A stretch of 63,808 nucleotides of DNA, filler included, from Conidiobolus incongruus B7586 (GCA_000697335.1; 40 parts of 40 records of this genome joined end to end with filler, not necessarily neighbours in it); one strand, 5' to 3'. Numbered from the whole stretch's first letter, positions 1,951-63,808 are shown. The notes: generated by a model from the sequence alone, not told the origin. Numbers and translations are program-made.

Positions 1951-3408
1951 ATTATTTGATTATAAATATATATATTTAAATATATTTAGTAAATTATTAG
2001 TAAAAGTATTAATATTTCATATTTAACTAATATAAGTCATAATTTTGCAAGTTTTTGAGATAAAGTGATATATTCAACAATATATAACCGTATCTTTTTT
2101 CTCTCTATGCTATTATTTTATATAATATTTTACAGATTTACTAAATTTTTTTATTAGTATCATTATACCTAAATTCATCTTTAAAAAATTCCACTTATAT
2201 ATCAATCAAATTTATAAAGAAGATAAATCAACTTGTGATATTGCTAGAATTACTGGTGTTAGCTAGTTTACTATGCTAAAGCTGTTAAGAATAGCAATAA
2301 AGACATATTTAAACCTAAACTTAAATGTGTTAAGATCATAGATAATTATAATGAGAATTATATCTATAGGTTGATTAGTACAAGTAAATATAGTATTGCT
2401 ATAGAAATATAGCAAGAATTGTGAGACTATGTAGGAATATTAGTTAGTATTGATACTATTATATATCCTTTATATTAGCATAGATACCACTTACACTTCA
2501 AGAAAAAACACCACCAACTAAAGAAATCCCATTTTAAAGCTAGGCAAGATTTTAAATATCATCACTAATATTAAATCAAAACTAATTAAAATAAGGTTAT
2601 TTAGTCTAATGAAACAAAAATATACCTTAGTAAATCTGATAGAAAAGCTAGATGCTTCAGAAAAGATGCAGAATTACTTTGTAACCATTATGTTAATTCT
2701 ACCCAAAAATACAATGGTGGGTCAATTATTGTTTGGGGATATATATTGTTTTTAAATATAGGGTATCTTTGTAAAGTTAATTGGGGAATTAATGTTAAGA
2801 TATACCAAAGTATATTAAACAATGAATTGAAAAAAACATTGAATGGTATAGGTTAAACAAATCTAATGTTATTTTCCAGCAAGATAATATCTCTTCCTTT
2901 ACTATAGCTTTTATTACCAAATAGCTTAAAAATAACAAGATAGTAGTTATGAAGTGGCTTCCTCAATCTCTTAACCTTAACCTAATTAAATATCTTTAAG
3001 ATTAGTTAAAAAAAGCTATTTAAGCTTTCCCCCTAGCAAAAGATTTAGATCAACTTTAGGAATATGCTCAAGAAGCATAAAACAAAATTAACTCTTCTTA
3101 GTGTAAGAAGTTAATTGATTCTATCCCCTACAAATTTAAAGAAGTTAGAAAAGCTAAAGATAGATATACTAAGTTATAATTTTTTTTATCACCAAAAACT
3201 TGCAAATTTATAACTAACCTTAGGTAAAATTTGAGTTTTTATATTTTAACCAAATAATAGCTATATATCATTATTTAATGATTTATATTATTAATAAATA
3301 TAATAGATTTTAATTATTTAATTTAATTTAATTTAATTTAATATTAATCAAGTTATTAGTAAAAATATAAGTATTTTTGATTTTATAACTTATTTTTATA
3401 GGTCAATG
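1951..3408 (+). mobile_element. Tc1-like DD34E transposon, subfamily A, dead; left end cut by contig edge; transposase remnant ~2165-3179
   Basis: Reads IARITGVS (HTH), SNETKIYL (WSDETK), NGGSIIVWG, IFQQDN, MKWLPQSLNLNLIK (WPPQSPDLNPIE). Ends ...GGTCAATG followed by TA at 3409-3410. Many stops. Confidence 0.95.
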
Positions 3409-4260
3409 TATATAAAGATTTTGGAAACAAAAATCAAATTATTATTAATTAAATAGCATTATTAGTTATTTTTTATAAAAAACAAAAAGAAATTTAAATA
3501 GTTGTTATATTTTATAAATAAATCAACTGATAATGATTTTTATTAAGTAAAAAGATATAATATTATAAAATATAGCTTTATTTAATAATATAATCATTAA
3601 TAAACTATTAAATTAAACTTTCAATATAATATTTTTTAAAACTTATTAAGTGATAATCATAAAAATGTTAATACAAATATTTTGTAATAAATCTAAAAAA
3701 TAAAACTATATAAATTAATATTAGTTAAAAAAATAGTTTTAATAATTATAGTATTTATTGTTAGCTATTATAATAATAGGATTTTGGCCAGTTTTATTTA
3801 ATTAATAAATATTTCAAAATTTTATTAAATATATAAACCATCATTTATAAAAGTCAAAATATATAATAGCTTATTTCATAATTAAATATAGATTTTATAT
3901 TAATGTTTAAAATTATATAATCAATTTATATAATTTAAAAATAATTTATTTAATATTGAATTATTGAATTTTAATTAAGTTCTAATTAATTAGGAATATT
4001 AAAATTTTTTAAAATATGGATAATTCAATAAAAATTAATATTAATTAGTGAAAAATTAAAACTAATCAAAATATTTTAATCCATTATTATTTAAAAAAAT
4101 GAAAATCAATAATAAATTTAATAAATTAGATTTTGTATAGTTATTTTAAAATATATCAATNNNNNNNNNNNNNNNNNNNNNNNNNNNNNNNNNNNNNNNN
4201 NNNNTTAATTAATTAANNNNNNNNNNNNNNNNNNNNNNNNNNNNNNNNNNNNNNNNNNNN

Positions 4261-5793
4261 ATTTTATATTTTTATCAATAACTATTTTATTAATGATTAA
4301 AATAGTTATATAAAATAATAAAGTAACAGAGATATAAAAAGAATGATAAAGGAATCAATTTTTTCTAAATTTAAAATATAAAGAGTAATATTCTAAAGCT
4401 AACTCTATAATATATTTAAAGGAATTATTATGGCGATTAACTAAAGGATTAACCTTATAATATATTTCTTTTTTAAAATCATATAAAACACTCATTATAT
4501 TGTTAAATCACAAATATTAAGGTAGTTGATTTTTAAGATATTTATAAATATCTAAGTAATTAAAAACAACAGTTATTTATTATAGATCATAAAATTTATG
4601 TTGAGTAATATTTTTAAGTTAAAAAAAATAAAGTTTTTTTTATTTTATTTTAAACTATTTAATATCTAAAATAAAATAAAGATTATATTTGTTAAAAAAA
4701 TGATAATATGATTTTTAATAGTTTTGAACTAGTTTTAAATATTATCTATATAATAAATGGAGACCAAATCTAACTAATTAAAAGGGAATATATATACATA
4801 TTTAAAATAAATTTCAAATAACTTTAAGTCTTGAATTTATTAGATATTTTTAAAACCAATATAGTTTTTTAGTTTTTTAAATAATTATTTAATTAAAGGA
4901 ATAATAAAAATAATCGCTTGAGCAAAATAAATTGATAGAAAAGGAGTAATCTTTTATAAACCTTGGTATCTAAAGAATAGGTATATCAAGAGTGCTATCT
5001 TTTATCAATTATTTAATTTATAAAAATAGTTATTTGGCTGAATAATTTAATTAAAATAATTTTTAATAAAAAAGAATTTTAAGATATTTAAGTTTTAAAA
5101 GATATTTTCAAGTTAATAATTAATTTCTTAGTTTTATTTTATATATAATGATTAATTATTAATAGTTATGTTTCACTTAATAGTTTAAATAAGGAATAAG
5201 AAACAAAAGATAAAAAAATTATAAAAAGATAGAAAATAAAATAAAATAGAATAATAGAATTAAAAAAGAATAAATAACAAAGGTAACAAAAAAAGATGAA
5301 TTAGAGAATTATAATTTGCTTATGAAAATAATTAAAGGTTTTTATATTGCTAAAAAGATTTATTATAATTATTATTTAAATATATTTTTAATAGGTTAAT
5401 AAGAGAAAGATAAGAAACTTGCTATTATCATATATTATCTTAATATTATGAACTAAGGTAGTTGCTTTATTTTTGGCAAACTTTATTTATTTAAATTAAG
5501 AAAAAACCTTTTTTTATTGAAATAAAGTTTGTGATAATATAAATAAAATATATTAGGAATAAATTATAGGTGAGTTTTGATAAAAAACAAGGGTATTAAT
5601 ATATAAAAAATATTTATATAATTAATATTATAATAATTAAAAATATTTTAATTTATATAATATTGCATTTTTAGATGATTTTTTAATTCTATTATTAAGG
5701 AAAATTTTGACAATAAAAATCAATTTTTAAAATTCAAAAATATTTTAATATAAAATCTCTTTCAGTTAGAATATAACTAATACAAAAAAAATA
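4261..5793 (+). mobile_element. Possible heavily decayed retroelement pol fragment (tentative)
   Basis: Only weak motifs: KELL-like at ~4420 and ATA GAT CAT AAA (TDHK-like RNase H motif) at ~4580. No open frame. Confidence 0.25.
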
Positions 5794-6000
5794 NNNNNNN
5801 NNNNNNNNNNNNNNNNNNNNNNNNNNNNNNNNNNNNNTTAATTAATTAANNNNNNNNNNNNNNNNNNNNNNNNNNNNNNNNNNNNNNNNNNNNATAAGAT
5901 TACTAAAACTATTATTAACTCCTAATTTATTATAATTAGGATTATTAAAATAAATATTAATAATATACTTAAACTTAAATCTATATATATAATGAATATA

Positions 6001-7443
6001 CACTAGCCTCTAAAATTGAGTCATAATATTAAAAATATATATATTTCTATTAATATCTTAATCAATACTAATTTAAATAAACTTATATTGAACTATATAA
6101 TTAATATATATTTCTTATCTATAATATAATATATATAGTTAAATTTAATTAATTATTAATTGATATATTAAAACTAAAAGTATACTTAAGGTAAGTTATA
6201 AATTTATGGGTTTAAGTATTAATAGAAAAATTAATATCTAATATATCCATCTTTTGCTTTTCTATCTTTTTTAAGTTTAAGAGGTATAGAGTCAACTAGC
6301 TTCTTATATTAAGCAAAATTAATATTATTCTAAGTTTCTTGAATATACTCTTAAAGTTAATTTAAATTTTTTACTAAGGGGAAAGCTTTAATTAATTTTT
6401 TTAATTAATCCTAAAGATATTCAATTAGGTTAAAATTAAGAGATTAAGGAGACTATTTCATAATAATTATTTTGTTATTTTTAAGCTATTTAATAGTAGA
6501 ATTTATATTATAACAAGGTATATTATTTTGTTAGATAATAATATTTGATTTCTTTGATTTATATTACTTAATAGTTCTTTTCATTTTATTGTTTAGAATA
6601 CTTTAATATATTTTAGTATTAATTCCCCCATCAACCCTACAAAGATACCTTATAACTAAAGATAACATATATCCCTAAACTATAATTAATCTATTATTAT
6701 CTTTTTGGGTTATAATAATATAATGGTTATAAAGTGGTTTTTTTTTCTTTTTTGAAGTATCTAGTTCTTTTATTAGATCTATTAAAATATATCTTTGTTT
6801 TATTAGATTAAATAACCTTACTTTAGTTAGGTTTAGTTCAACTTTAGTATTGACATTTAAACTCCCACCTAGCTTTATAATAGGACTTCTTTAGTTTGGG
6901 GTGTTTTTTAAAGTGTAATTGATATCTATTCTAATATAAAGCATATATAATAGTATTAGTATTAATTAATATTCTTGTAGAGTTTTATAATTCTTATTAT
7001 ATTTTTATAATAATATTACACTTCCCTGTACTAACTAATCAATAAATATATTTTTTATCATTTTTATCTATAATCCTAATATATCTAAGTTTTAGTTTAG
7101 GTGTTTTTTTTAACATTGTTCTTAATAACCCTAGCTATAATAAATTAGGTAACATTAGTAATTCTAGCAATTTCACAAGTTGATTTATTTTCATTATAAA
7201 GTTGATTAATATATAAGTGAAGTTTTTTAAAAAAAACTTTATATATTATAATATTAACTTTAAAATATTAGCTTAATAGTTTTATAATATATATAATATA
7301 ACAAAAAAAAGATATATATTAGTTTTGTTATTTATATCCCTTTAAATTATAAACCCATAAATTTATAACTCATTTTGGTTAAATTTTAGGTTTTGATATA
7401 TTAACCAATAGCTAATGAAATATAATCAAATATAGTTAGTTAT
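6001..7443 (-). mobile_element. Tc1-like transposon, subfamily B, dead; transposase remnant ~6231-7246
   Basis: Terminus TA|CACTAGCCTCTAAAATTGAGTCATAA at 6001. Colinear with the other copies on the minus strand. Confidence 0.93.
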
Positions 7444-7580
7444 NNNNNNNNNNNNNNNNNNNNNNNNNNNNNNNNNNNNNNNNNNNNTTAATTAATTAAN
7501 NNNNNNNNNNNNNNNNNNNNNNNNNNNNNNNNNNNNNNNNNNNAAAATTTATAAAATCAACTTAATAGTTTTATTATATA

Positions 7581-9022
7581 AACTAACTTACAAAAGTGAG
7601 TCATAAAATCAAAGATATTTATATTTTTACTAATAACTTGATAAATATTTAATGAAATAAACCTAAATGAAATAATTAAAATCTTTTATATTTATTAATT
7701 ATATATATTATTAAATGATAATATTTAGCTTTTAATTAGTTAGAATATAAACCCTTAAATTTTACCTAAGGTGAGTTATAAATTTGTGGGTTTTTAGTGA
7801 TAAAAAAAATTAAAACCTAATATATCTATTTTTAACTTTTCTAACTTCTTTAAGTTTGTGGGGTATAGAATCAACTAACTTTTTATATTAAGAAGGGTTA
7901 ATCTTATTCTATGTTTTTTGAATATATTCCTAAAGTTAATCTAAATCTTTTGCTAAGGGAAAAACTTTAATAACTTTTTTTAACTGATCTTAAAGATATT
8001 TAATTAGATTAAAGTTAAAAGATTAAGAGGCTACTTTATAACTATTATTTTGTTATTTTTAAGCTATTTAGTAGTAGAAGCTATAATATAATAAGAAGCA
8101 TTATCTTATTAGAAAATAACATCAAATTTATTTAACCTATACTATTCAATGGTTTTTTTCAATTTATTATTCAGAATATTTTGGTATATCTTAGCATTAA
8201 TTCCACTATTAACTTTATAAAGATATCTTACACCTGAAGACAATATATATCCCTAAATAATAATTAACCCATTATTATACTTTTGGGTAGAATTAATAAA
8301 ATAGTTATAAAGTAATTTTGTATCTTTTCTAAAGTATCTAACTTTTCTATTAAATTTATTAAAATATATTTTTGTGTTATTAGATTAAATAACCTTACTC
8401 TAATAAATTTTAATTTAATATTAATAATGACATTTAAATTCCCACCTAGTTTTATAATAGGATTTCTTTAGTTAAGGGTGTTTTTTCTTAAGGTATGAGT
8501 AATATCTATGCTAATATAAAACACATATAATAGTATTAGTGCTAACTAATATTCTTATATAGTTTTATAGTTCTTGCTATATTTTTACAATAGTATTTTA
8601 CTTACCTATACTAACTAACCTATAGATATACTTCTTATCATGTTTATTTATAATCCTAACATACTTAAGTTTAGGTTTAAATGTTTTTTTATTGCTATTC
8701 TTAATAGCTTTAACTATAGTAGATTAGCTAACACTAGTAATTCTAGCAATATTACAAGTTGATTTATCTTTTTTATAAGGTTAATTAATGCATAAATAGA
8801 TTTTTTTTAGAGAGGGATTTAAGCATAATAATACTAATAAAAAAATTTAGTATAATTGTATAATATTATAAAAATAATAACAAAGAGAAAAAAAATATGA
8901 TTAAATATTGTTAAATATATTCCTTTATCTTAAAAACCCACAATATATAACTCACCTTGGTTAAATATTAAGGGTTAATATTTTTGCTAATAGTTTATTA
9001 AATATATCTAAATATATTTATT
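7581..9022 (-). mobile_element. Tc1-like transposon, subfamily A, dead
   Basis: Outer repeat CAAAAGTGAGTCATAAAATC at 7591, inner repeat AAGGTGAGTTATAAATTTGTGGG at 7768. Start ATG retained near 8826. Confidence 0.93.
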
Positions 9023-9202
9023 NNNNNNNNNNNNNNNNNNNNNNNNNNNNNNNNNNNNNNNNNNNNTTAATTAATTAANNNNNNNNNNNNNNNNNNNNNN
9101 NNNNNNNNNNNNNNNNNNNNNNATTTAAATTAGAAATGATTTAGATATTAATAAAAATATTTGTATATTTGATTTTATTACTTTTTTTTATCAATTAGTT
9201 TA

Positions 9203-11021
9203 TATTAGCTTATTATTATAAATTACAAAATTCAAAATATTTTTTTATTTTGATTTTAATTAATTTTTATTTTTATTTTTATTTGAATAAATTAATATTG
9301 AGTTTTATAATTAATTTATAACTTTTAGAAAAATAAAATATATAAAATTCAATTTAATTAATTTTAAATGATTATATTATATTTAAAATTTATTCAAGCA
9401 AATTTATAAATTTATAAATTATAATATTAACAAAGAAATTAATAAATAATATATTAATCCTTTGTTTTTTTAACTTTCTTAATTTTATTGGATATAAAAT
9501 CAATTAGCTTTTTATATAAATATAGATTAATATTAATTTAAGTTTTATAAATATATTTTTAAAATTAATTTAAATATTTTACTAAAAAACAAGCAATAAT
9601 TAATATCCTTAATTAATCTTAAATTAATTGATTTGGGTTAAATTAAAAAATTAAGGATAATATATCATTATATTTATTTTGTTATTTTTAAGCTAGTTAT
9701 TAATAAAAATTATTATATAAAAAAGGTATTACTTTATTAAAACAAAATATTTCATTAATTTAACTTATAATACTTAATAGTTTCTTGAATATATTATATA
9801 AAATATTTTATTATATATAAATATCAATTACTTTATTAATTTTATAAAGATATTTATATCTAAATATAATATTTAACCTCAAATTAAAATTGACTTATTA
9901 TTATATTTTTAGGTTAAAATAATATAATAGCTATAAAATGGTTATTTATCTTTTTTGAAATATCTAACTTTTTAATTAAATTTTTTAAAATATATCTTTA
10001 TTTTATTAAATTAAATAACCTTATTCTTATTAATTTTCAATTAACTTTAATAATAATATTGAAATTATTACCTAACCTTAAAACAAAATTTTTTAATTAG
10101 GGATATATTTTAAAACAAAGAAAATATTTATTTTATTATAAAATATATGTTAACAATGAGTTATTTCTTAGTATCAAGGATTTGGGTAAAAGTTGAATGC
10201 TATGCTTGCTGGTTATATCAAAAGATAGGAATAAATATTAATAATATAGATTGCTTATAAATCACAAATATCCATAATATCCCTAACCAAGAATTACAAA
10301 GATTTGATGTTATTTTGGTTCTTGATATAGTCACCAGTTAATAATAATAACTTTAAGATTTAAGTGATCTAATAGATTTATAATAGAAAAAGATATCTTT
10401 ATTATGATGGTTATAATTAAAGTTATATATCCATGGTAATTTATAGATTATGACTCACCTTCTAAAGGGTTAAAGTTCATCAATATCAAGATAACAACTA
10501 TAGATGACAAATGAGGCTTTGCTATATATAAGTAAATTAAAAGGGATGTCAATATCCAATAAAATTATAGAAATGACTTGACTATCAGAATACTTGCTAG
10601 TAATATATATTATAATATTAATCCTAACTAATAATTTTATATAATCTTGAAATTCTTATTAAATTTATTAATATTAATCAATTTATAAATATATTTTTTA
10701 TTATGTTTATTTATAGTTTTAATATATTTAACTTTAGTTTTAAATTTAATTTTTTTTTAAATATTATTATTAATTACCCTATTTATAATAGAATTATTAA
10801 TATTAATAATTCTAATAATCTGATAAATTAATTTATTTTCATTTTAAGATTTATTAATATATAAATAAACTTTTTAAAATAAGGTTAAAATATTATAATA
10901 AAAAATTTATATCAAATATAATAAGGCAAAAAAAAATAAATATATAAGTTTGGTTATTTATATCTTTTTAACTAATATATCTGTATATTTATAAATAATT
11001 TTTATCAAATTTTAGATTTTA
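9203..11021 (-). mobile_element. Tc1-like transposon, very degraded, interrupted by a solo LTR at 10148-10605
   Basis: Colinear with the family from ~9440 to 10147 and resumes at 10606. Terminus near 9203 is only weakly recognisable. Confidence 0.85.
10148..10605 (+). mobile_element. Solo LTR (458 bp), copy 1
   Basis: TGTTAACA...GCTAGTAATA (decayed TG...CA), flanked by TATA on both sides. TATATAAG at ~10525 and AATAAA at ~10558 suggest orientation. Reverse-complement homologue of the same length at 36431-36888. Confidence 0.85.
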
Positions 11022-11207
11022 NNNNNNNNNNNNNNNNNNNNNNNNNNNNNNNNNNNNNNNNNNNNTTAATTAATTAANNNNNNNNNNNNNNNNNNNNNNN
11101 NNNNNNNNNNNNNNNNNNNNNTATTTCAATAATATTCAAAATATAGAATAATATAATTATTTATAAAATTTATTATCATTTTATAAATAATTACTATTAT
11201 ATATATA

Positions 11208-12711
11208 TACTAGCCTATAAAAATAAGTCATAAAATCAAAATTACTTATATATTTACTTATATCTTAAACAATTCTTAAATAAATTTAAATTAGAATATA
11301 TTATTTACCAATATTGATTGATTATAATTAACTATATTTGATTATATTTCATTAACTATTGGTTAATATATCAAAACTTAAAATTTAACCAATATGAATT
11401 ATAAATTTGTAGATCTATATATTAAAGGATTATATATAACAAAATTTAAATATATCTTTTTTTTGTTATATTATATATATTATAAGATTATTAAGCTAAT
11501 ATTTTAAAATTAATGATATAATTCTTAAATCTTTCTTTAAAAAAGTTCATTTATATATTAATCAACCTTATAATAAAAATAAATCAACTTATAAGATTAT
11601 TAGAATTATCAGTGTTAGCTAATCTATTATAACTAGGATTAAGAAAAATATTAAAAAATCACCTAAACTAAAACTTAAAAATATTAAAATTATAGATAAG
11701 CATAATGAAATGTATATTTATAGATTAGTTAGTACAAATAAGTATAATATTGCTATAAAAGTACAATAAGAATTATAAGACTATATAAGATTATTAGTTA
11801 ATATTGATATTATTTATATATTTTATATTAAAATAGATATCACTTATATTTTAAATAAAATATCCCCAACTAAAAAAATCCCACTATAAAACTAAATAGG
11901 AGTTTAAATGCCAATATTAAAGTTGAACCAAAATTAATTAAAATAAAGTTATTTAGTTTGATGAAACAATGATATATCTTAATAAATTTAATAAAAAAGC
12001 TAGATATTTCAAAAAAGATAAAGAATTACTTAATAACCATTATGTTATTATAACTTAAAAATATAATGATGGGTTAATTATAGTTTAAGGATATATGTTA
12101 TCTTTAGGTATAAGATATCTTTATAAGGTTGATGGAAGAATTAATGTTGAGATATATTAAAGTATTTTAAACAATAAATTGAAAAAATCTATTAAGTGAT
12201 ATAAATTAAATAAATTAAATATTATTTCCTAATAAGATAATACCTTTTGTTATATTATAAATTTTATTAATAAATGGCTTAAAAATATAAAATAACTATT
12301 ATAAAATAGCCTTCTTAATCTCTTAATCTTAATCTAATTAAATATCTTTAGGATTAACTAACAAAATCAATTAAAGCTTTCCCCTTAGCAAAAAATTTAA
12401 ATTAACTTTAGGAGTATATTCAAGAAGCTTAGAATAATATTAATTTTACTTAATATAAGAAGCTAGTTGACTCTATACCCTATAAACTTAAAAAAGTTAG
12501 AAAAGCAAAAAATAAATATATTAGATATTAATTTTTCTATCAATATTAAAACCAACAAATTTATAACTTATCTTAAGTATACTTTTAGTTTTAATATATT
12601 ATTTAATAATTAATTAAATTTCATTTTTTATATTATATTATAAATAAAAAATATATATTAACTATATAATTTAATATATATTTATTAAAATGAAAAATAA
12701 TTAAGATATTA
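11208..12711 (+). mobile_element. Tc1-like transposon, subfamily B, dead; transposase remnant ~11521-12531
   Basis: Left terminus TACTAGCCTATAAAAATAAGTCATAAAATC. GATGAAACA (DET) retained at ~11960. Confidence 0.93.
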
Positions 12712-13150
12712 NNNNNNNNNNNNNNNNNNNNNNNNNNNNNNNNNNNNNNNNNNNNTTAATTAATTAANNNNNNNNNNNNNNNNNNNNNNNNNNNNNNNNN
12801 NNNNNNNNNNNAATAATTAAATTATTAAATATAAGCTATTATTAATTATTATTATTTTATTATGAATAGTTTAAAATATATTATAATGATACTGTATATA
12901 AAATTATTAATATTTTATAATATCTTGTATATATATTTTTAATAACATTTAAGATATTAAAAGTTATTTAAATATTTTATATCAAACAATTCGAAAAAAC
13001 TTTAAAGTATTTTTCTAAAATAAGAAAGTTTCACTTTAAATAATAAAACTTTATTTTTGAAAATATAATTTCTAATACTTTAATATTTATTAAATTAAAT
13101 ATATTATAATAATTAATTTTCTTTTTAAAAATTCATTCAAATTCAAATTA

Positions 13151-14644
13151 TATTAGCCATTAAAAGTAAGTCATAAAATCAAAATTACTTAAATATTTAC
13201 TTATATCTTAAACTATTCTTAATTAAATAAATTTAAATTAAAATATATAATTTACCTATATTAATTAACTATAATTAAGTATATTTGATTATAATTCATT
13301 AGCTATTGGTTAATATATCAAAACCTAAAATTTAACCAAAGTGAGTTATAAATTTATGTATTTATAAGTTAAAATGATATAAATAACAAATGTTATATAT
13401 ATCTTCTTTTTCTTTTGTTATATTATATATATTATAAATTATTAAGCTAATATTTTATAAATAATATTATAATACTTAAATCCCTCTCTAAAAAAGTTCA
13501 CTTATATATTCATCAAATTTATAATAAAAATAAATTAACTTATAAGATTATTAGAATTACTAATATTAGCTAATTTATTATAGCTAGGGTTATTAAGAAT
13601 AATACGAAAAAAACACTTAAATTAAAACTTAAGTATGCTAAAATTATAGATAAATATAATAAAAAGTATATTTGTAGATTAGTTAGTATAAGTAAGTATA
13701 ATATTATTATAGAAATACAACAAGAATTACAAGATTATATAAGAATATTAGTTAGAACTAATATTATTATACATACTCTATATTAGAATAAATATTGCTT
13801 ATATTTAAAAAAAACACCCTTAACTAATGAAGTTTTATTACAAGATTAAGCAGGAGTTTAAATGTCAATACTGAAGTTGAATTAAAATTAACTAGAGTAA
13901 AGTTATTTAATTTAATAAAACAAAGATATGTTTTAATAAATCTAATACAAAAGCTAGATATTTCAAAAAAGATAAAGAACTATTTTATAATTATTATATT
14001 ATTACAACCCAAAAATATAATAATAGGTTAATTATAATTAAAGGATATATATTATCTTCAGGTATAGGGTATTTTTATAGGGTTAATAGGGGAATTAATA
14101 CTAAAATATAGTAAAGTATTTTAAACAATAAATTAAAAAAACTATTAAGTAGTATAGATTAGAAAAATCAAATATTATTTTCCAACAAGATAATACACCT
14201 TGCTATATTATAAATTCTACTATTAAATGGCTTAAAAATAACAAAATAACTATTATAAAATAACCTTTTTAATCTCCTAATTTTAACCTAATTAAATATC
14301 TTTAGGATCAAATAAAAAAATTAATTAAAGCTTTCCCCCTAGTAAAAAATTTAAATCAACTTTAGGAGTATATTTAAGAAGCTTAGAATAATATTAATCC
14401 TGCTTAATATAAGAAGCTAATTGATTTTATGCCTTATAAACTTAAAGAAGTTAAATAAGAAAAAAATAAATATACTAGATATTAATTTTTCTATCAATAC
14501 TAAAACTTGCAAATTTATGTTTAATCTTAAGTATACTTTTAGTTTTAATATATCAATTAATAATTTATTAAATTTAACTTTATATATTATATTATAATTA
14601 AATAATATATATTAATTATATAGTTTAATATAAGTTTATTTAAA
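13151..14644 (+). mobile_element. Tc1-like transposon, subfamily B, dead; transposase remnant ~13472-14485
   Basis: Left terminus TATTAGCCATTAAAAGTAAGTCATAAAATC. TTCCAACAAGATAATACACCTTGC (FQQDNTPC) and KWLKNNK retained. C-terminus YTRY*. Confidence 0.94.
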
Positions 14645-14744: not shown

Positions 14745-15095
14745 TATAAATAATTTTATTTTCTGGTTTTAAAATAATTTAGCTAGCAATAAAAAATTAA
14801 TTAAAATAATACTTTATTATCAAAAAATACTTTTAATATATAAATAATTTTAGAGAGTTTATGGTTAAATTTGATAAATAAAAGAGTATAGGAATTTTAA
14901 TAACTATAAATTGATTTTAAATTAATCAAACTAAATAATTAATTTTAAAAAGTTAATTTTTTAATCCAAATGGCTAATATATATATAATAAAACTCTATA
15001 TTTTCAAATTTATTTTTTATATATTTGAATATTTAAGCGAATAATATATTTAAATAATCAAAAATTAAAAAACTTTTAATTTTATTATAATATTT
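14745..15095 (-). mobile_element. mariner 5' fragment
   Basis: Aligns by eye with 54010-54358 (e.g. TTTAGAGAGTTTATGGTTAAAT vs TTAGAGGGCTTATGGTTAAGG). Confidence 0.75.
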
Positions 15096-15129
15096 TTTTT
15101 AGTTTAAATTATAAATTTTCCTATTATAA

Positions 15130-51538: not shown

Positions 51539-51758
51539 NNNNNNNNNNNNNNNNNNNNNNNNNNNNNNNNNNNNNNNNNNNNTTAATTAATTAANNNNNN
51601 NNNNNNNNNNNNNNNNNNNNNNNNNNNNNNNNNNNNNNAATAAATAAAATAACTAAGTTTTATAAAATAAATTAGGCTAATTTGATAAAAATTAATATTA
51701 ATTATATATATATATAGTTTTTAACTTTATATTTTTATCTGATAAATTTATATAAATA

Positions 51759-52976
51759 TATTAACTTGCAAAAATAAACCATAAAATCAGAAACACTTAT
51801 ATTTTTACCAATAACTTGATTAATATCTAATAAAATAAACCTAAATTAAATAATTACAATTTATTATATCTATTAATAGTTTATAATATTAAATAATGAT
51901 ATATAGTTATTAACTGGTTAAAATATAAACCCTTAAATTTTACCTAAGAGTTATAAATTTATGGGTTTTTAGTGATAAAATAAATTAAAACTTAGTGTAT
52001 TTATTTTTAGCTTTTATAACTTTAAGTTTGTGGGGCATAGAATCAACTAACTTTTTATAATAAGAAAGTTTAATTTTATTTAATATTTCTTAAATATATT
52101 CTTAAAGCTAATTTAAATTATTTACTGAAGAGAAAGCTTTAATAGCTTTTTTTAACTAATCCCAAAGATATTTAATTAGGTTAAGATTAAGAAATTAAAA
52201 AAGCCATTTTATAACTATTATTTTATTATTTTTAAATTATATGGTAATAAAAGCTATAATTTAGCAAGAGGTAATATCTTATTAAAAAATATCATTAGTT
52301 TATTTGACCTATATTATTTAATATTTTTTTTAAATTTATTATTTAAAATATTTTAATATATCTTAATATTAATTCCCTTATTAAATTTATATAGATATTT
52401 TATAACTAAAGATAGTATATGTTCTTAAATAATAATTGACCTATTATTGAACTTTTAGATAGAATTAACATAATAGTCATAAATTAATTTTATATTTTTT
52501 TAAAAATATTTTGCCTTTCTATTAAATCAATTAAAATATATTTTTATTATAGTAAATTAAATAAACTTAATTTAATTAGTTTTAATTTAATATTAATAGT
52601 GATATTTAAACTCCCACTAAGTTTTATAATGGGATTTCTTTAATTAAAGGTATTATTTCTTAAGGTATGAGTGATGTCAATATTAATATTAAATATATAT
52701 AATAATATTAATATCAATTAATATTCTTACATAGTCTTTTAATTCCTATTATATTTCTATAATAATATTATATTTGCTTATATTAACTAACCTATAAATA
52801 TATTTTTTATTATATTATTCTATAATCTTAACACATTTAAGTTTAAGTTTAAATATATCTTAATTATTATTTTTAATAACTTTAACTATAATAAATTAGC
52901 TAAAACTAGTAATTCTATTAATATCATAATTTAATTTATATTTTTTATAAAAAAGAAAAATTTATAAATGAATTTT
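51759..52976 (-). mobile_element. Tc1-like transposon, subfamily A, dead
   Basis: Terminus TATTAACTTGCAAAAATAAACCATAAAATC; DSMPHKL retained near the C-terminus. Confidence 0.92.
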
Positions 52977-53090: not shown

Positions 53091-54358
53091 TTACTCTGTA
53101 TTTTTAATAATGGGAATTTTTTATAATTATAAATAAATATATAATATAAATTTAATAATTTCATTTATTATTAGTAACTTTATAGTATACTTTTAGCAAA
53201 GATCTAAAAGCTAAAAAATAATTCATTTTATTAAAGACTGAAATTTAATGTTTCATAAAGTAATTAAATTTTCTTATAAAAATTTTCTTTCCTGTAAACT
53301 AGTTTTTTAATTATCTAAAGCAATTATAATTACATAGGTTATAATCTAAAGAGTATACTAGATATGGTAGTTTTTTCTAGTTATTTTTAATTAGAAAGTT
53401 TTTTTAACTTTAGATTTATATATTTTGCAAATATTATGCAAAATAATAAGTCTACTCAAATTATATTGAAAACACCAATTAGAAATATTATTTTTTAAAA
53501 AATCAATATAAAGTTTACTATTAATTGATTTTCCTTGAGGAATTAAATAAAAGTAATATATATCATTATAATTCATTGCAATAATTAACATTTGTTTATT
53601 AATAAAATACTTATTTAAAGGGATTTGTAGAGGGAGTTGATTTATCTTAATCTAGCATTTTGATTTATATTTTAGTAAAGGATTATATATAAAAATCTAA
53701 AATTCATCAATTATAATTATTTGTTGTAAAAGTTTAGGCTTCTGGTAATATTATGATAAGTTTTGTTTTATAATAACTATTTCAGTTTTTTTCTAAGCTT
53801 TAGTTAAATTATTAAGTTCCTATTTTATGTTTTTTTTATTAATTTGAGTTTAAACTTTAATATATATAAAATACTTGTAAGACTAATATTAAAGTACTTA
53901 GATAATTCTTTTGCTGAAATAAAAAGGTATTTTTTAATATTTTTTTTCACTCTAATAACAATTGAAAGAATAACAGTTGAAGTTAGTTTTTTAGATTTTA
54001 ATAGATTTTAGATAATCTCTCTTTTAACTTTAAAATAATTTACCTAGCAATAAATTGTTAATATAGATAATGCTTCATTATCAAAAGCTGCTTGTAAATT
54101 TTAAATAATTTTAGAGGGCTTATGGTTAAGGTTTATTGATACTAAAATAAAAGACTTTTGATGATTATTATTTAATCTAAACAAGATTAAATTGAACAAC
54201 CAATTTTGAAAAATTAATTTTTTAATCAAAAATATTATTATATATATTAAAAATATATAATTTCCTATTAACTTTGTATATTTTTTTCATTTCCAACTAA
54301 TAATATATTTGAAAAATCAAAAATTAAAAAATTTCCCATTATTTCAAATTTATGATAA
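53091..54358 (-). mobile_element. Near full-length mariner transposon (1268 bp), dead; transposase remnant ~53152-54170
   Basis: Both TIRs (TTACTCTGTATTTTTAATAATGGGAATT and TTCCCATTATTTCAAATTTATGATAA|TA). ORF 53391-53591 (LIPQGKSINSKLYIDFL) is a fragment of it. Confidence 0.94.
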
Positions 54359-56526
54359 TAATTATAATTATTTTTACTTTATAATCAATATTTAAATTTT
54401 TTTCTTTTAATANNNNNNNNNNNNNNNNNNNNNNNNNNNNNNNNNNNNNNNNNNNNTTAATTAATTAANNNNNNNNNNNNNNNNNNNNNNNNNNNNNNNN
54501 NNNNNNNNNNNNTAATAATTTGATATAATTTTTACTAAACAAAAATCGTATAATTTTCAAAATAATCATATATTATAAACTTAATAAATATTTCAACAAG
54601 TCAAAATAACTAAATATTAAAAATATTATTACGATATTTTTAATATTTCCTAGTTTTCCTTTAGTAGCTTTTGTATTTAGTGAACTAATTTAATTTATAT
54701 TCAAAATGATTATACTTAATAGATATAATTCAATTTTGTAATTAACTTAGTATTTTTTATTAAAATTGAATTTATTAATAGAAATATCTTTTTACTTTTA
54801 TTTAATTAAGGTTTAGATTGAAATTTAATTAGTATTAATGATCAATCAACAAAATAAAGAAATTTCAAAAATAGATCTAATGCTAGGTTTTATTTCAAGC
54901 TTATAATAAAATAATTTTGCTTTATTTTAATGATTTGTTATATTTGGTTATTTAATATATATCATATATTTTGGTATAGTTCTAATATTTTCAAATTTAT
55001 TAATAATATCATTATTTTTCATTTTTTAATTAGTATTTAATTCTTTTGAATATTAAAAAAATAATATATATTATACTTAAAATATTATTTGATAAATTGT
55101 ATATTATTTGAATTATATATTATATTATTAAAAAATCATAAATTAACAATAATATTAATTTTTTGAAATGTTTTATTTGATTTTTGAATAAATTATATAA
55201 TTATTGATTAATTAAAAATGAAATTAATAATGAATATATTTTTTCAATAAGTTTAAAATTTTTTATCATTTTATTTTTAAACCAAAATTTAAAATTAATA
55301 ATACAGAATAAAAGGATTACAATGATAAATAGATATAATATATTATATAAATAATTTAAGATATTAATTTTTATATCGAATTAATCAGAATTATTAATTT
55401 ATATAACTGATTTTACTGTAAATAATAAGTTTCATTAAATATAATTATTGTATTAAAATAAAATACAAAAATTTCAATATAAATTAAATATAAATTTTAT
55501 AAAATATAATATTAATATTATATATATTTTCATAAGGTTTTGGCCTTACTTTTTACACAGATCAATTATTTAAAAAAGTTTTTTTTATTTAAGAATGATG
55601 TTTTATATAATAATTAATTAAATTTTCTAAAAATGATTTTTTGTATGAGGAATAGTGATTTATTTTCTTAATTTTTACATAGGTTTTAATCTATCAATTT
55701 CATTTCAAATTATATTATTTTAAAGTTAATTTTTATTATATTTTTTAAATTTAATTGATTAACATTATTATAAAATATAAGTTATTAAATATATATTATT
55801 ACAACCTATCAAAATATTTCAAATTTTTATTATTAATTTGCTTATTCAATGGCATTTACAAAATGGTTTAATTTGGCTTGATCCAATATCTTGTGTAATT
55901 ATTTAATTATACATTATATCAAAATAAATAAAATTTATTCAATTTAATTATTTATTATCACAGCATAAGTTTTCATTTTATTTTATTTTAATTTAGTCAA
56001 TTATTTCAATTTTTTTTTAATCAAATTCCCAGATATTAATTTTATAATATAATTTATTAATATAATTTTAAACTTTGTTATTTATAATACTTATGAGACT
56101 TATATTATATATTTTAATTATTCTCTTTGTTAAAATTAATTGTTACTTGACAATATATTTTTTTACTTATTATTTATAGATTCAATATTAAAACTCTTTT
56201 TTTATAGTTTAATAAGTTTTAGATTGCTTTTCTCCTAGCTTAAAATAATATAATTAGTGATATATAATTTGTTTAAAGAGTTTTATATTATTATTAATTA
56301 CTTATAAATTTTAAAAAATTTTACAAGGTTTGAGATTAAATTAAATTATTATGAAAATACAAAACTTTTAATGATTATTAATGTTTTTAATTAAAGAGAA
56401 TTAAATATATAAATATAATTAATTAANNNNNNNNNNNNNNNNNNNNNNNNNNNNNNNNNNNNNNNNNNNNTTAATTAATTAANNNNNNNNNNNNNNNNNN
56501 NNNNNNNNNNNNNNNNNNNNNNNNNN

Positions 56527-57735
56527 TATTAAATTATATAATTAATATATATTTTTTATTTATAATATAATATATAAAGTTAAATTTAATTAATTACTAA
56601 TTGATATATTAAAATTAAAAGTATACTTAAAATAAGTTATAAATTTGTTAGTTTTAGTATTAATAGAAAAATTAATATCTAATATATCTATTTTTTGCTT
56701 TTTTAACTTCTTTAAGTTTATAAAGCATAGAGTTAACTAACTTTTTATATTAAGCAAGATTAATATTATTCCAAGCTTCTTGAATATACTTTTAAAGTTG
56801 ATTTAAATTTTTTGCTGGGGGGAAAACTTTAATTGATTTTTTTAGTTGATCCCAAAGATATTTAATTAGGTTAAGATTAAGAGATTGAAGAGGCTATTTC
56901 ATAATAGTTATTTTGTTATTTTTAAGCCATTTAATAGTATAATTTATAATATAACAAGGTGTATTATCTTGTTGGAAAATAATATTTGATTTTTTTAATC
57001 TATATTACACAATAGTTTTTTTCAATTTTTTGTTTAAAATATTTTAATTTATTTCAATATTAATTCCCCTATTAATCTTACAAAGATACCTTATACCTAA
57101 AGATAATATATATTCTTAAATTATAATTAACCTATCATTATATTTTTGGTTTATAATAATATAATAGTTATAAAGTGGTTTTTTATCTTTTTTGAAATAT
57201 CTAGCTTTTTTATTAAATTTATTAAAATATATCTTTATTTTATTAAACTAAATAATTTTACTCTAGTTAGTTTTAGTTTATTTTTAATATAGGTATTTAA
57301 ACACTTACCTAGTTTTACAATGAGACTTTTTTAATTAGGGGTGTTTTTTCTTAAGATATAAGCAATATCTATTTTAACACAAAACATATATAATAGTATT
57401 AGTACTAACTAATATTCCTATATAGTCTTATAATTCTTGTTATATTTCTATAATAATATTACACTTACCTGTATTAACTAATCTATAAATATACTTTTCA
57501 TCATATTTATCTATAATTTTAATACACTTAAGTTTTAATTTAAGTGTTTTTTTAGCATTATCTTTAATAACCCTAGTTATAATAAATTAGCTAATATTAG
57601 TAATTCTAATAATTTCACAAATTGATTTATTTTCATTATAATGTTAATTAATATATAAGTGAACTTTTTTAAATGGAGATTTAAGCATTATAATATTAAT
57701 TTTAAAATATTAGCTTAATAGTTTTATAATATATA
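56527..57735 (-). mobile_element. Tc1-like transposon, subfamily B, dead
   Basis: FQQDNTPCY, LWDQLKK and EAWNNI retained; ATG near 57688. Confidence 0.94.
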
Positions 57736-57835: not shown

Positions 57836-58860
57836 AACTTATGATAATAAAATATTATTTAAATTAATAATTAATTACCAGGAAAATTATTTTAAGGCTA
57901 AGAAAAAAACTATCCAAAACTTATTAAATTCTAGAAAACTAATTTTAACTTTTATTTTTTTAATTATTAATATTAAAAAAATATATTAAAAAGGATCTTT
58001 TTATTTTAGCTAGAGAACTATCAAAGGGCTTTAATTTTAGTCATATAAGTATTTTATATATATTAAAATTTAAATTAAAATTCATTAATAAAAATATAAA
58101 ATAAGTACCTTATAATTTAATTAAAACTCAAAAAAACTAGGGTAGTTATTAATAAATAAAACTTACTAAGGTATAGCTAGACCCTAAAGCTTTTATAATA
58201 AATTATTATAATTGATAAATCTTAAATCCTTTTGTATAATCCTTTATCAAAACATAAATCAAGATTTTAGATTAAGCTAAATCAATCTCTTTTATAAATT
58301 CCTATAAATAAAAATTACATTGATAAGCAAATATTAATTATTAAGATAAATTATAATGGTATTTGCTATTTTTATTTTATTTCTAAAGGAAAATCAACTA
58401 ATAATAAACTTTATATTTTTTTTAAATAAAATTATTTTTAATTGGTATTTTGAATATATATTAAGAAGAGCTATTATTTTGCATAAATATTATAAAATAT
58501 ATAAAATTAAAACTATAATAAACTTTCTAATCGAAAATAATTAGAAAAAACTATTATATCTAGTATATTCCTTAGATTATAACCTATATAATTATAATTA
58601 CTTTGAGTAATTAAAAAACCAGCTTATAAAACAGAAACTTTTATAAAAAAATTTAATTAATTTATAAAATATCAAATTTCAGTCTTTAATAATAAAATTT
58701 TTTTTCAAATAATAAAATTTAATTAAAAATATGGTAAAAAGTTATTAAAATAAAAGAAATTATTAATCTTATACTATATACCTATTTTTATATATTATTT
58801 ATTTAATTATTTATTTTTTTAATCATTAAAAATTCCCATTATTTAAATTACCAAATAATA
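57836..58860 (+). mobile_element. mariner transposon, dead, 5' end cut by contig edge
   Basis: Colinear with the family; stop ~58764; TIR AATTCCCATTATTTAAATTACCAAATAA. Confidence 0.9.
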
Positions 58861-59646
58861 ATATAATAGCTATAATTTAAAACAAAAATAATTATAAAAA
58901 TAATATGACAAGATTATACAAATATAAACAAATAAATGAATATAAATATATTAGATTTTATTTAATATAATATTCAAATTCATATTAATAGATATAATTT
59001 TAATTTTAAAAGAATATAAGTATGAATATCAAAATTAATATAAATTATAATAAAAAAAGATCCATATCTAATAATTATATCAAAATATTTAAATATTTAA
59101 ATTAATTTTAAAATTATATATTATTTTATTATTTTATTATATTAAAATAAATATAATTATATAAAACTATATATAAAATTTCAAAAAATTAATTTTTTAA
59201 TCAAATTAANNNNNNNNNNNNNNNNNNNNNNNNNNNNNNNNNNNNNNNNNNNNTTAATTAATTAANNNNNNNNNNNNNNNNNNNNNNNNNNNNNNNNNNN
59301 NNNNNNNNNAAAATTAATATATATTATAATAATTATAATAATAAAACCAATATAATATAAATAAAATAAAAAATAATTTTGTTAATAATATAATAATATA
59401 ATATACAGATATAAACAAAATTAAATTAATATTTAGTAAATAATAAAATATTAATATATTTGATTTTATATTAAAAAATAACAATAAAATATAATATTGA
59501 CAAAATATAACTTCAATTATAAAAACAATAAAAAAAACAATAATTAAAAAAAAATAATAATATATTAGATAATTTAATGATATTTATATAATTAATTTAA
59601 TTTTAAAAATATATATAAGATTTTAAAAAATTAGTTCTTTAATATA

Positions 59647-60923
59647 TACTAGCTTATAAAAGTGACTCATAAGATTAAAAATATAAATATTTCTATTAAT
59701 ATTTTAATCAATTTTAATTTAAATAAACTTATATTAAACTATGTAATTAATATATGTTTTTTATTTATAATATAATATAAAAAGTTAAATTTAATTAATT
59801 ATTAATTGATATATTAAAACTAAAAATATATTTAAGATAAGTTATAAATTTACAGGTTTTAATATTAATAGAAAAATTAATATTTAATATATCTACCTTT
59901 TGCTTTTCTAACTTATTTAAGTTTATAGGGCATAAAGTCAACTAACTTTTTATATTAAATAACATTAATATTATTCTAAGCTTCTTAAATATATTTTTAA
60001 AGTTAATATAACTCTTTTGTTAGGAGGAAAGCTTTAATTAATATTTTTAATTGATTTTAAAGATATTTAATAAAATTGAAATTAAAATATTAAAGAAACC
60101 ATTTTATAATAATTATTGTGTTATTTTTTCAGCCATTTAATAATAGAATTTATAATATAACAAGGGATATTATCTTGTTGGAAAATAATATTTAATGTAT
60201 TTAACCTATATCACTTAATAGTTTTTTTTAATATATTATTTAAAATACTTTAATATACCTTAATATTAATTGCCTTATTAATCCTATAAAGATATCTTAT
60301 ACCTACAGATAATATTTATCCTTAAATTATAATTAACCTATTATTGTATTTTAGGATATAATAACATATTAATTATAAAATAATTTTTTATCTTTTTTAA
60401 AATATCTAAGTTTTTGATTAAATTTATTCAGATATATTTTTGTTTTATTAAAGCAAATAACCTTACTCTAGTTAATTTTAATTTAACTTTAATATTAACA
60501 TTTAAACTCCAATCTAATTTTATAATAAAACTTCTTTAGTTAGAGGTATTTTTTTCTTGAGAGATAAACAATATCTATTCTAATATAAAGTATATATAAT
60601 AATTTTAATACTAACTAATATCCTTATATAGTTTTATAATTCTTATTATATTTTTATTCTAATATCATACTTAGCTATACTAACTAATCTATAAATATAT
60701 TTTTTATCATATTCATTTATAATTTTAATGCACTTGAATTTTAGTTTATGTGTTTCTTTAATATTATTCATAATAACCCTAGCTATAATAAATTAATTAA
60801 TACTAGTAATTTTAGCAATATCATAAGTTAATTTATTTTTATTATGAAGTTGATTAATATATAAATGAGCTTTTTTAGAGAGAGATTTAAGTATTATAAT
60901 ATTAATCTTAAAATATTAGCTTA
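59647..60923 (-). mobile_element. Tc1-like transposon, subfamily B, dead
   Basis: Terminus TACTAGCTTATAAAAGTGACTCATAAG; FQQDNIPCY and KWLKK retained. Confidence 0.92.
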
Positions 60924-61106
60924 NNNNNNNNNNNNNNNNNNNNNNNNNNNNNNNNNNNNNNNNNNNNTTAATTAATTAANNNNNNNNNNNNNNNNNNNNN
61001 NNNNNNNNNNNNNNNNNNNNNNNAATATTGATTTTAAAATTATTAATTTCTATAAAATGAATATTTTATAATATATATTTTAATTTTTCCAAAAAATTCT
61101 ATAATA

Positions 61107-62313
61107 TTGCTTTATAATTTAAATAATAGGGAATTTTTTGCAATTGAAAAAAATAAACATTATAATATATAAAAAGTCAAAATAAATTTATAATATAAAA
61201 TTAATAATTTCTTTTATTTCTAATAACTTTTTGCTATATTTTTAGTAAAGATTTAATATCTAAAAAATATTTCTTTTTATTAAAAACTAAAATTTCATAT
61301 TTCACAAACCAAATAAATTTTTCTGTAAAAATTTTCTTTCTTGTAAGTTGGTTTTTTAATTATCTAAAATAATTATAATCACATGGGTTATAATCTAAGG
61401 AATATACTCAACATAATAGTTCTTTCCAGTTATTTTTAATTAGAAAGGTTTTTATAACTTTAAGTTTATATATTTTATAATTATTATATAAAATAATAGG
61501 TCTTCTCAAATTATAACAAGAACACTAATTAGAAGTAATTTTATTTAAAAAAGAAATATAAAGTTTATTATTAATTGATTTTCTTTTAAGAACTAAATAA
61601 GAAAAGTATATTCTATTATAATCTATTATAATAATTAATATTCATTTATCAATAAAATAATTATTTAAAAAAATTTATAAAAAGGGTTAATCTAACTTAA
61701 TTTAATATCTTGATTTATGCTTTAGCAAAAAATTATACAAAAGAATCTAAGATTCAATTCATTATTATAATTTATTATAAAAGCCTTGGTTTCTAGTTAT
61801 ACTTTAGTAAGTTTTGTTTAACAATAGTTACTCTAGCTTTTTTTAAGCTTTAGTTAAATTATAAAATACCTATTTTATACATTTATTAATTAATTTTAAT
61901 TTAAACTTTAATATATATAAAATACTTATGTAACTAATATTTAAATATCTTGATATTTCTTTAGCTGAAATAAAAAGATGAATTTCAATATAATTTTTCA
62001 TTTTATTAATGATTAGAAAAGTAACAATTGAAATTAATCTTCTAGATTTTAACAAGTTTTGGGTAGTTTTTCCCTTAACTTTAAAGTAATTTACCAAGCA
62101 ATAAATTATTAAGTAATGTTTTATTACCAAAAGCTGCTTGTAAATTTTAAGTGATTTTATAGGGTTTGTGGTTAAGTTTTATTAATAATAAAATAAAAGA
62201 CTTTTGATAGTTACTATTTGGTTTAAATATTATTAAATTAAACCACTAATTTTAAAAAATCAATTTTTTAATTAAATAAATTTTTATCATTATTATTATA
62301 TATATAAATAGAT
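61107..62313 (-). mobile_element. mariner transposon, dead; transposase remnant ~61201-62217
   Basis: TIR TTGCTTTATAATTTAAATAATAGGGAATT; DYNPCDY retained; ORF 61870-62130 is its N-terminal HTH region. Confidence 0.93.
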
Positions 62314-62413
62314 NNNNNNNNNNNNNNNNNNNNNNNNNNNNNNNNNNNNNNNNNNNNTTAATTAATTAANNNNNNNNNNNNNNNNNNNNNNNNNNNNNNN
62401 NNNNNNNNNNNNN

Positions 62414-63808
62414 ATATTAAACTATATAATTAATATATATTTTTTATTTATAATATAATATATAAAGTGAAATTTAATTAATTATTAATTATTTATTAAA
62501 ACTAAAAATATATTTATAATGAGTCATAAATTTATAAATTTTAATATTTATAGAAAAATTAATATTTAATATATGTATCTTTTGTTTTTTTAACTTCTTT
62601 AAGTTTATGGGGTATAAAGTCAATTAGTTTCTTATATTAAATAAGACTAATATTATTCTAAGCTTTTTGAATATACTTTTAGTGTTGATTTAAATTTTTT
62701 GTTAAGGGGAAAGTTTTAATTAATTTTTTTATTTGATCCTAAAGATATTTAATTAGGTTAAGATTAAAAAATTAAGGAGGCTATTTTATAATAGTTACTT
62801 TGTTATTATTAAGCCATTTAATAATAGAATTTATAAATATAACAAAGGTTATTATCTTGTTGGAAAATAATATTTGATTTATTTAACTTATATAACTCAA
62901 TAGTTTTTTTCAATTTATTGTTTAAAATATATTGATATATTTTAGTATTGATTCCTTTATCAACCCTATAAAAATACCTTATATTTACAGATAACATATA
63001 TTCTTAAATTATAATTAATCTATCATTATATTTTTGGGTTGTAATAATATAATGGTTATAAAATAGTTCTTTATCTTTTTTGAAATATATAGCTTTTTTA
63101 TTAAATTTATTAAGATATATCTTTATTTTATTAAACTAAATAACTTTACTCTAGTTAATTTTAATTTAACTTTAGTATTGATATTTAAATTCCCATTTAA
63201 TTTTATGCTAAAACTTTTTTAATTAGGGGTGTTTTTTCTTAAGATATGAGTAATATCTATTCTAATATAAAACATATATAATAGTATTAGTATTAATTAA
63301 TATTCTTATATAGTTTTGTAATTCTTATTATATTTCTATAGTAGTATTATATTTACTTATATTAATTAATCTATAAATATACTTCTCATTATATTTATCT
63401 TTAATTTTAAGATGCTTAAGTTTTAATTTAGGTGTTTTTTAGTATTGTTTTTAATAACCTTAGTTATAATAGATTAGCTAACATTAATAATTTTATTAAT
63501 TTTATTAGTTAATTTATTTTTATTATAAAGTTGATTAATATGTAAATGAACTTTTTAAAGAGAGATTTAAATATTATAATATTAATTTTAAAATATTATC
63601 TTAAAAGTTTTATAATATATATAATATAACAAAAGGAAAAAAAAATATAAATAGGTTTTGTTATTTATATCCCCTTAATTTATAAACCCATAAATTTATA
63701 ACTTACCTTAGTTAAATTTTAGGTATTTATATATTAACCAATATCTAATAAAATATAATCAAATATAATTAGTTATAATCAACTAATATAGGTAAACTAT
63801 ATATTTTA
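62414..63808 (-). mobile_element. Tc1-like transposon, subfamily B, dead
   Basis: Inner repeat TGAGTCATAAATTT at ~62520; colinear with the family to the window end. Confidence 0.93.

Follow-up and report, generated by a model that had tools for sequence, protein, structure and literature searches.

Repeat-associated C>T hypermutation of Tc1 and mariner transposon copies in all CpN contexts and on both strands of an AT-rich genome

The 63,808-nucleotide stretch of DNA analysed here (the window) consists of 40 contigs of 1.2–2.2 kb each, joined by N44-TTAATTAATTAA-N44 spacers, that is, of separate pieces and not of a single locus. Its Tc1 and mariner transposon copies have undergone C>T conversion of unusual size and clear direction, with a fixed order of sequence contexts, symmetrically on the two strands and at a dose peculiar to each copy, whereas four contigs and two mariner relics in the window are without this signature. 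These observations support the central claim of an earlier reading of this DNA (the original prediction), namely a repeat-associated C>T hypermutation on both strands far beyond the AT pressure of the genome. The feature is real and unusually strong. As its cause we favour, with moderate confidence and on sequence grounds, a chronic mutagenesis in which presumptive methylation of cytosines in all contexts would be laid down by a putative DNMT1/DIM-2-type enzyme and, as we infer, would act over a long time.

Direction and size of the conversion

Changes were scored in 18 copies by an outgroup test based on residues found unchanged in 85% or more of 18 intact relatives, a design that avoids the bias from fully converted sites. 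Among 1302 ancestral C:G positions, 748 now read T:A, 18 had changed C>A (1.4%) and 9 C>G, i.e. nearly all changes at such positions were C:G>T:A (748/775). At ancestral T:A positions (n = 1377) the original pair was kept in 1344 cases (97.6%), the remainder being 20 T>A, 12 T>C and 1 T>G. The next commonest change was about 40 times rarer than C>T.

Comparison within four subfamilies (8, 5, 5 and 6 copies, with c6, c28, c19 and the relics excluded and given a separate score) showed that transitions make up 74, 74, 79 and 63% of the pairwise differences, with C/A plus G/T at 4–9% and 1–8 insertion or deletion events per 1.1–1.5 kb copy, in keeping with the expectation that C/T or G/A differences dominate while length is nearly conserved. 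In a maximum-GC consensus check of the kind proposed beforehand, choosing the G/C allele at variable sites lengthened the longest stop-free frame from 48–62 to 106–215 codons and restored the DDE and DDD motifs, and because favouring G/C restores long frames and catalytic motifs the direction of change is G:C to A:T. The open reading frames of the intact relatives have a GC content of 46–57%. In the window copies, Trp and Gln codons were turned into stops and start codons into ATA; the latter was predicted for most copies and is read in 11 of 16 alignable Tc1 copies, with ATG in 3 and other codons in 2. All nine individual sites originally cited read as stated, the one given at 12082 actually beginning at 12083, and at the codon taken to have been CGT the intact relatives do conserve Arg, while the copies read TAT (5), TGT (4) or CAT (1). 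The outcome of the conversion is permanent inactivation of the elements.

All-against-all alignment and translated search identified 18 near-full Tc1 copies in three subfamilies plus two partial ones (c6, c28), giving 20 where 19 had been counted previously, and mariner in seven copies, as previously counted, together with four older relics (c9, c18, c21, c35). The spacing of the catalytic motif is that of DD34E in Tc1 and DD34D in mariner. A Pfam search of 16 segments returned HTH_Tnp_Tc3_2 in 6 and DDE_3 in 3; the intact Tc1 relative P0006 matches the window family with E 1.8e-89, and mariner was assigned by a match to Mos1 (E 4.7e-8). A Tc1-type terminal-repeat match was found in 10 Tc1 contigs, and a 25-bp TA-flanked end is common to the window Tc1 and the intact relatives L001 and L002, the latter having long inverted repeats that contain internal direct repeats. 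The terminal repeat of c8 (at 13149) differs from the intact L002 end solely by C>T and G>A. Copies are 80–87% identical to one another, and 12,073 and 13,679 assembled pieces align to one Tc1 copy in two public runs of one sample. The copies are as follows.

1951..3452 (+) Tc1 c2, subfamily A2; least converted copy, C>T 0.22 (leave-one-out)
5922..7443 (-) Tc1 c4, A1; terminal repeat at 5999
7561..9022 (-) Tc1 c5, A2
9123..11021 (-) older Tc1 relic c6, split near 10140-10620 by a segment common to c22
11122..12711 (+) Tc1 c7, A1
13149..14644 (+) Tc1 c8, A1; terminal repeat at 13149
16283..17737 (+) Tc1 c10, A2
23345..25076 (-) Tc1 c14, A2
25179..26637 (+) Tc1 c15, A3
32983..34264 (-) Tc1 c20, A1
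38813..40082 (-) Tc1 c24, A3
40185..41463 (+) Tc1 c25, A3
43079..44453 (-) Tc1 c27, A3
44554..45021 (+) Tc1 3' fragment c28, A2-like
46028..47275 (+) Tc1 c29, A3
50305..51538 (+) Tc1 c32, A1; most converted Tc1 copy, C>T 0.52
51639..52976 (-) Tc1 c33, A2
56527..57735 (-) Tc1 c36, A1; 338-codon frame 57688-56675 with no frameshift and many stops
59349..60923 (-) Tc1 c38, A1
62414..63808 (-) Tc1 c40, A1
31561..32870 (+) mariner c19 (DD34D), more diverged
37436..38712 (+) mariner c23
47405..48729 (-) mariner c30
48868..50202 (+) mariner c31
53120..54369 (-) mariner c34
57836..59121 (+) mariner c37
61054..62313 (-) mariner c39

Tc1-type terminal-repeat matches lie at the end of mariner contig c30 (48733-48757) and directly before the 5'-truncated Tc1 in c32 (50367-50391), which suggests nested or adjacent insertions.

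Sequence context, strands and dose

A mixture model fitted to the four subfamilies estimated conversion by 3' neighbour at 0.79–0.94 for CG, 0.54–0.58 for CA, 0.34–0.36 for CT and 0.21–0.26 for CC, so that the order CpG > CpA > CpT > CpC is alike in all four. The outgroup test, split by codon class, gave 0.59–0.80 for CpA and 0.23–0.44 for CpC, and at three conserved Arg sites CG was kept in 0 of 30 codons. For context rates these two approaches replaced a first tally that required one surviving C and was hence biased; the figures for the 5' base come from that tally and show no effect on conversion (0.48–0.52). A preference for TpCpG, as in Pucciniomycotina (PMC3318451; papers are cited here from excerpts), was looked for in the window copies and none was seen. 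Any plant-like preference for CHG is at most weak (CAG 0.55 vs CAH 0.42, CTG 0.37 vs CTH 0.31, about 100 sites each). The CpA bias of the original prediction is thus real among non-CpG sites, but it is CpG, not CpA, that ranks first.

Strand asymmetry was at chance level (permutation p 0.33), with nominal p<0.05 in 3 of 24 copies, and simulated one-strand rounds fitted the data only from about 20 per site with 400-bp tracts or more than 40 with whole-copy tracts. The C>T load ranges from 0.22 to 0.52 among copies, and that of a given copy is common to its two halves (r 0.82) and its two strands (r 0.76). Since the load is shared in this way and every copy keeps to its subfamily at all 85 diagnostic columns, the strand symmetry is unlikely to result from mosaic assembly. 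Load also increases with a T>A clock (Spearman 0.45, p 0.03). Newly made CpG numbered 5 in 1103 against 26.7 expected (p 4e-7), a scarcity that leans towards continued purging.

Affected and spared DNA

Contig GC content is 10–19%, and the non-repeat contigs, at 12–15%, are as AT-rich as the elements. Their dinucleotides are nonetheless clearly different: 25 young-copy contigs hold 6 CpG in 35,942 bp vs 31 in the 7,116 bp of c1, c12, c13 and c17, in which the observed/expected ratio (o/e) is 0.6–1.6 for CpG and 0.96–1.15 for CpA. The substrate index is 1.44 in these four contigs vs 0.70 in Tc1 and 0.94 in mariner; TpA/ApT, one of the two indices proposed as a check, is uninformative, control contigs also reaching 0.91. 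Masked repeats contain 15 CpG where 242 are expected and have a CpA o/e of 0.70, while unmasked DNA has 42 CpG against 74 expected. When the young-copy contigs were compared with the six that have no partner within the window (c1, c3, c12, c13, c16, c17), C was followed by G in 0.002 vs 0.049 of cases (p 5e-18), and CpA versus CpT differed with p 2e-17. The controls are listed below.

1..1850 control contig c1, without signature; CpG o/e 0.72, CpA 1.15
19612..21615 control contig c12, without signature; at 20911-20972 a truncated tRNA-Thr(AGT)-like sequence
21716..23240 control contig c13, without signature; CpG o/e 1.06
28153..29889 control contig c17, without signature; CpG o/e 1.57

An equilibrium simulation, with rates set by hand from the mixture-model and outgroup spectra, arrived at 2.7% GC, a CpG o/e of 0 and a CpA o/e of 0.55. 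Because this is unlike c1, c12, c13 and c17, the spectrum of the elements is not that of the genome as a whole.

The claim that every transposon family is affected was overstated. The old mariner relics c18 and c21 together retain 8 CpG in 2062 bp, with an index of 1.41, no CpA deficit and T>A of 11–13%, and since they belong to the window's mariner family an unaffected class sits in the same genome. They may have been released from the process or never hit. Relics at 65–70% identity are without the signature; c6, c19 and c28, at 72–79%, hold no CpG.

30305..31460 (-) old mariner relic c18, without signature; 6 CpG, no CpA deficit
34365..35270 (+) old mariner relic c21, signature weak or absent
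14768..15097 (-) old mariner 5' relic c9
55707..56426 (-) old mariner 5' relic c35, limits approximate

Two low-copy repeats also bear the signature, a duplication in c11 and a segment shared by c22 and c6.

18056-18304 and 18769-19017, direct duplication of 249 bp in c11; 17 of 19 differences are transitions
36405..36880, c22 segment also present as the c6 insert (10140-10620); transitions at 46 of 64 differences

At the c22/c6 transitions the G/C allele is in c22 in 36 cases and the reverse holds in 10, and neither sequence contains CpG. This segment of about 470 bp (24–29% GC, about 86% alike) is much less eroded than the Tc1 around it, and a Pfam search of the c22 frames gave no match. The c11 duplication surrounds a broken lysine-rich frame, possibly a retroelement relic. 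Another repeat, to which no family was assigned, is shared by c11 (17838-19511) and c26 (41564-42944) at about 75% over 530 bp; here the picture is less clear, with transitions at 50 of 97 differences.

Mechanism, host and significance

In the process that we favour, a DNMT1/DIM-2-type cytosine methyltransferase would mark repeats in all sequence contexts, and the marked cytosines, presumably 5-methylcytosine (5mC), would become thymines little by little over many cell generations. Targeting may proceed via heterochromatin or small RNAs and would fade once a relic has drifted to about 65–70% identity. With non-CpG rates as high as these, conversion may be helped along by an enzyme or repaired poorly, and not be purely spontaneous. 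What a DIM-2-type enzyme is expected to leave is found in the window: all CpN are converted, there is no strand processivity and dose rises with age, if sublinearly. It is the 3' neighbour that determines the rate, as it does the specificity of methyltransferases; the 5' neighbour, which matters to AID/APOBEC, does not. DIM-2 is described as methylating all CpN contexts and as occurring in Mucoromycota (PMC13297926), alongside DNMT1 in Phycomyces (PMC13297926, PMC7862722), and in Zymoseptoria repeats Dim2 is reported to raise mitotic C>T more than tenfold, only at CA (PMC8016269). The second option of the original prediction, all-context repeat methylation followed by deamination, is supported.

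Several observations weigh against chronic all-context methylation. The one mitotic fungal mutator demonstrated is described as hitting CA in more than 98% of cases and sparing CG (PMC8016269), and such a CA-specific, CG-sparing pattern, as in Zymoseptoria, is not seen in the window copies. The 80–87% identity between copies lies near the reported RIP (repeat-induced point mutation) threshold of about 80% (PMC2621366), as pairing-based RIP predicts. Load is front-loaded, following rate = 0.37 + 6.6 x T>A, with a large intercept that could come from saturated fast sites, clock noise or an early burst; T>A in the mariner subfamily is double that in A3, while their C>T loads are similar. If a lower gain rate is assumed, the expectation for new CpG falls to 9.9 and the deficit reaches only p 0.07. 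Furthermore, the partnerless contigs c3 (4261-5793) and c16 (26756-28052) carry the full signature, and flanks are intermediate, with 9 CpG vs 28 expected and a noisy distance profile in which no clean boundary was found. The two contigs are likely relics of other repeat families, and the signal in them and in the flanks may mark unrecognised repeats or spreading. Because they are affected, it is by contrast, and not at each single site, that a restriction to repeats is shown.

Considering these points, true RIP, with premeiotic pairing, a RID-like enzyme and many mild rounds plus a separate CpG methylation decay, deserves attention, although we find it doubtful. As in Neurospora and other Pezizomycotina, the changes are nearly pure C:G>T:A in repeated DNA, CpA loss is heavy, indels are few and transposases are permanently inactivated; by the usual indices the pooled Tc1 contigs would qualify (1.16 and 0.70), relics at 65–70% identity escape while copies at 80–87% do not, and load grows less than proportionally to the transversion clock. 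RID-bearing Pezizomycotina have a GC content higher than the 12–15% of the window's non-repeat DNA. This composition separates the window from the group in which RID is documented (distribution in PMC5751038), CpG outranks CpA in the window copies, and Neurospora clusters are given as 91.9% one-strand (PMC7296669), whereas the window excludes fewer than about 20 rounds per site. Preference for CpG and then CpA has been called RIP-like for the MATE element of Aspergillus nidulans (PMC2621366), and RIP indices have been reported in Zoophthora radicans (PMC11105155). In outcome the feature is like RIP, but it fails two Neurospora-type features, CpA first and one-strand clusters, and the classical RIP reading of the original prediction was not upheld. 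A dedicated, homology-guided and RID-independent counterpart of RIP outside Dikarya, possibly non-fungal, would act in all four contexts at tens of times other substitution rates without strand processivity, would release repeats below about 70% identity and would have helped to drive the genome towards 13% GC; taken as a whole, we judge this unlikely.

The non-repeat contigs being equally AT-rich and the intact relatives having far more GC in their reading frames, any AT-biased genome would erode such newcomers, and genome-wide AT mutation pressure without repeat targeting could in principle account for the losses. Nevertheless, we hold it to be very unlikely in view of the simulated equilibrium, the CpG and CpA contrasts between young-copy and partnerless contigs, the low C>A share and the old relics of the same mariner family, hence of the same genome, that keep CpG. 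AID/APOBEC enzymes read the 5' base and leave one-strand clusters. A deaminase of this type recruited to transposon DNA would fit the pure C>T change and rates far over background even at CpC and CpT, yet the 5' base is without effect, the 3' base sets the rate and no strand clustering is seen, so that its probability is slight. Bisulfite treatment, damage or mosaic contigs might come to mind since the contigs are short and end near element ends, and only 38% of sampled c2 words were present in the best runs, and thousands of similar pieces exist; however, both strands are hit within one contig while other contigs are spared, subfamilies are never switched and copy halves share their load, and variable places on a Tc1 copy are transitions in 200/223 and 211/234 cases in the two public runs of one sample. 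We therefore regard a library or assembly artefact as extremely improbable.

Compared with known systems, chronic all-context methylation has a parallel in the Dim2 mutator of Zymoseptoria tritici, where C>T in transposons is linked to a methyltransferase without a cross and exceeds 95% in methylated regions (PMC8016269); there CG is spared, while here CG is fastest and CT and CC are heavily hit. Tuber melanosporum (PMC4352252) and A. nidulans MATE (PMC2621366) share the top two contexts, CpG then CpA, but both are ascomycetes, Tuber has a RID/Masc1-like gene, and in the window all four contexts are hit and the host seems to belong to another group. Ordinary decay of methylated CpG, as in Basidiomycota (PMC3318451, PMC4352252), likewise nearly eliminates CpG from repeats and keeps it elsewhere; it enriches CpA/TpG, however, whereas here CpA is depleted and CpA, CpT and CpC are converted at 0.21–0.80. 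Among 80 metagenome loci of intact Tc1 relatives, selected for intact motifs, CpG o/e was below 0.3 in 42 and CpA below 0.8 in 0, which argues that the window pattern is not the ordinary CpG footprint. The environmental Tc1 loci L005-L080 fall into a CpG-poor, CpA-rich class (42/80 of the intact loci) and a class with normal CpG, from which it follows that some hosts methylate these elements at CpG and others do not. A RIP-like composition outside Dikarya has been described for Entomophthorales, with 24.2% of the genome affected in Z. radicans; dinucleotide indices are the basis of that report, which comes with its authors' major caveats (PMC11105155), while the evidence here is alignment-based and outgroup-polarised.

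An animal host had been proposed from the DD34D mariner and the tRNA-Thr sequence, but the nearest named Tc1 proteins are fungal and the animal ones more distant. In a quick tree the window Tc1 falls in a clade of unnamed environmental transposases (15 rows, support 99). The closest named proteins are from Rhizophagus irregularis, one being 43% identical to P0006 and a second belonging to a cluster whose representative shows 47% identity; named animal Tc1s match the window profile at E of about 1e-17 to 1e-23 vs 1e-76 for the clade representative. Cluster look-ups returned Rhizophagus, Closterium, a frog, two fishes and a pseudoscorpion, all outside the window clade or not placed, and atlas neighbours of one mariner ORF included both Arthropoda and Basidiomycota clusters. 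A homologue search with a single mutated copy found none, and Pfam on 45 stop-free or read-through segments of non-Tc1 contigs was uninformative for 44, with two weak sub-threshold matches. Tc1/mariner elements with Transposase_1 domains are described as ubiquitous in fungi (PMC5751038). The tRNA-Thr(AGT)-like sequence at 20911-20972 scores 32.5 bits in Rfam over model positions 6–65 only, has no acceptor stem and keeps 3 CpG; ARAGORN did not call it, and a tRNA pattern was unmatched in viral contigs. It is probably a pseudogene or the head of a SINE (short interspersed nuclear element), a weak match that is not diagnostic of kingdom. Non-repeat DNA of about 13% GC in which CpG is intact does not resemble that of vertebrates, of land plants or of the usual RIP-bearing ascomycetes; a similar AT richness occurs in some early-diverging fungi. 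Cumulatively, we consider the host probably an early-diverging fungus, with a protist unlikely, Dikarya or an animal each a little less likely, and any other lineage very improbable. In runs X5-X7, which are labelled with the same species as the run that carries these sequences, none of the sampled words occurs; no contigs of X5 and X7 fell on the Tc1 copy, which is no proof of absence, while X1 and X2 contain the family in great abundance. The difference could stem from a burst that is recent and specific to a strain, from a mismatch of labels or from filtering. No RNA run was among those listed as carrying the sequence, which has no bearing on expression.

A 2025 survey of 1,239 genomes, as excerpted, reports RIP-like signatures from ascomycetes alone and set repeats against the remaining non-coding DNA of scaffolds longer than 50 kb (PMC12543289), a design that an AT-rich, fragmented genome like this one could escape. 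No report of a four-context pattern in an animal or protist, or of an alignment-based one in an early-diverging fungus, was found in the literature searched, supplements excepted. If the host lies outside Dikarya, the window would provide evidence, at the level of alignments, that repeats in such a lineage undergo heavy non-CpG hypermutation, for which the sources excerpted otherwise offer index-based hints. The more than 12,000 assembled pieces of one Tc1 family in a run would also permit a direct test of whether methylation alone gives RIP-scale mutagenesis without sex or RID.

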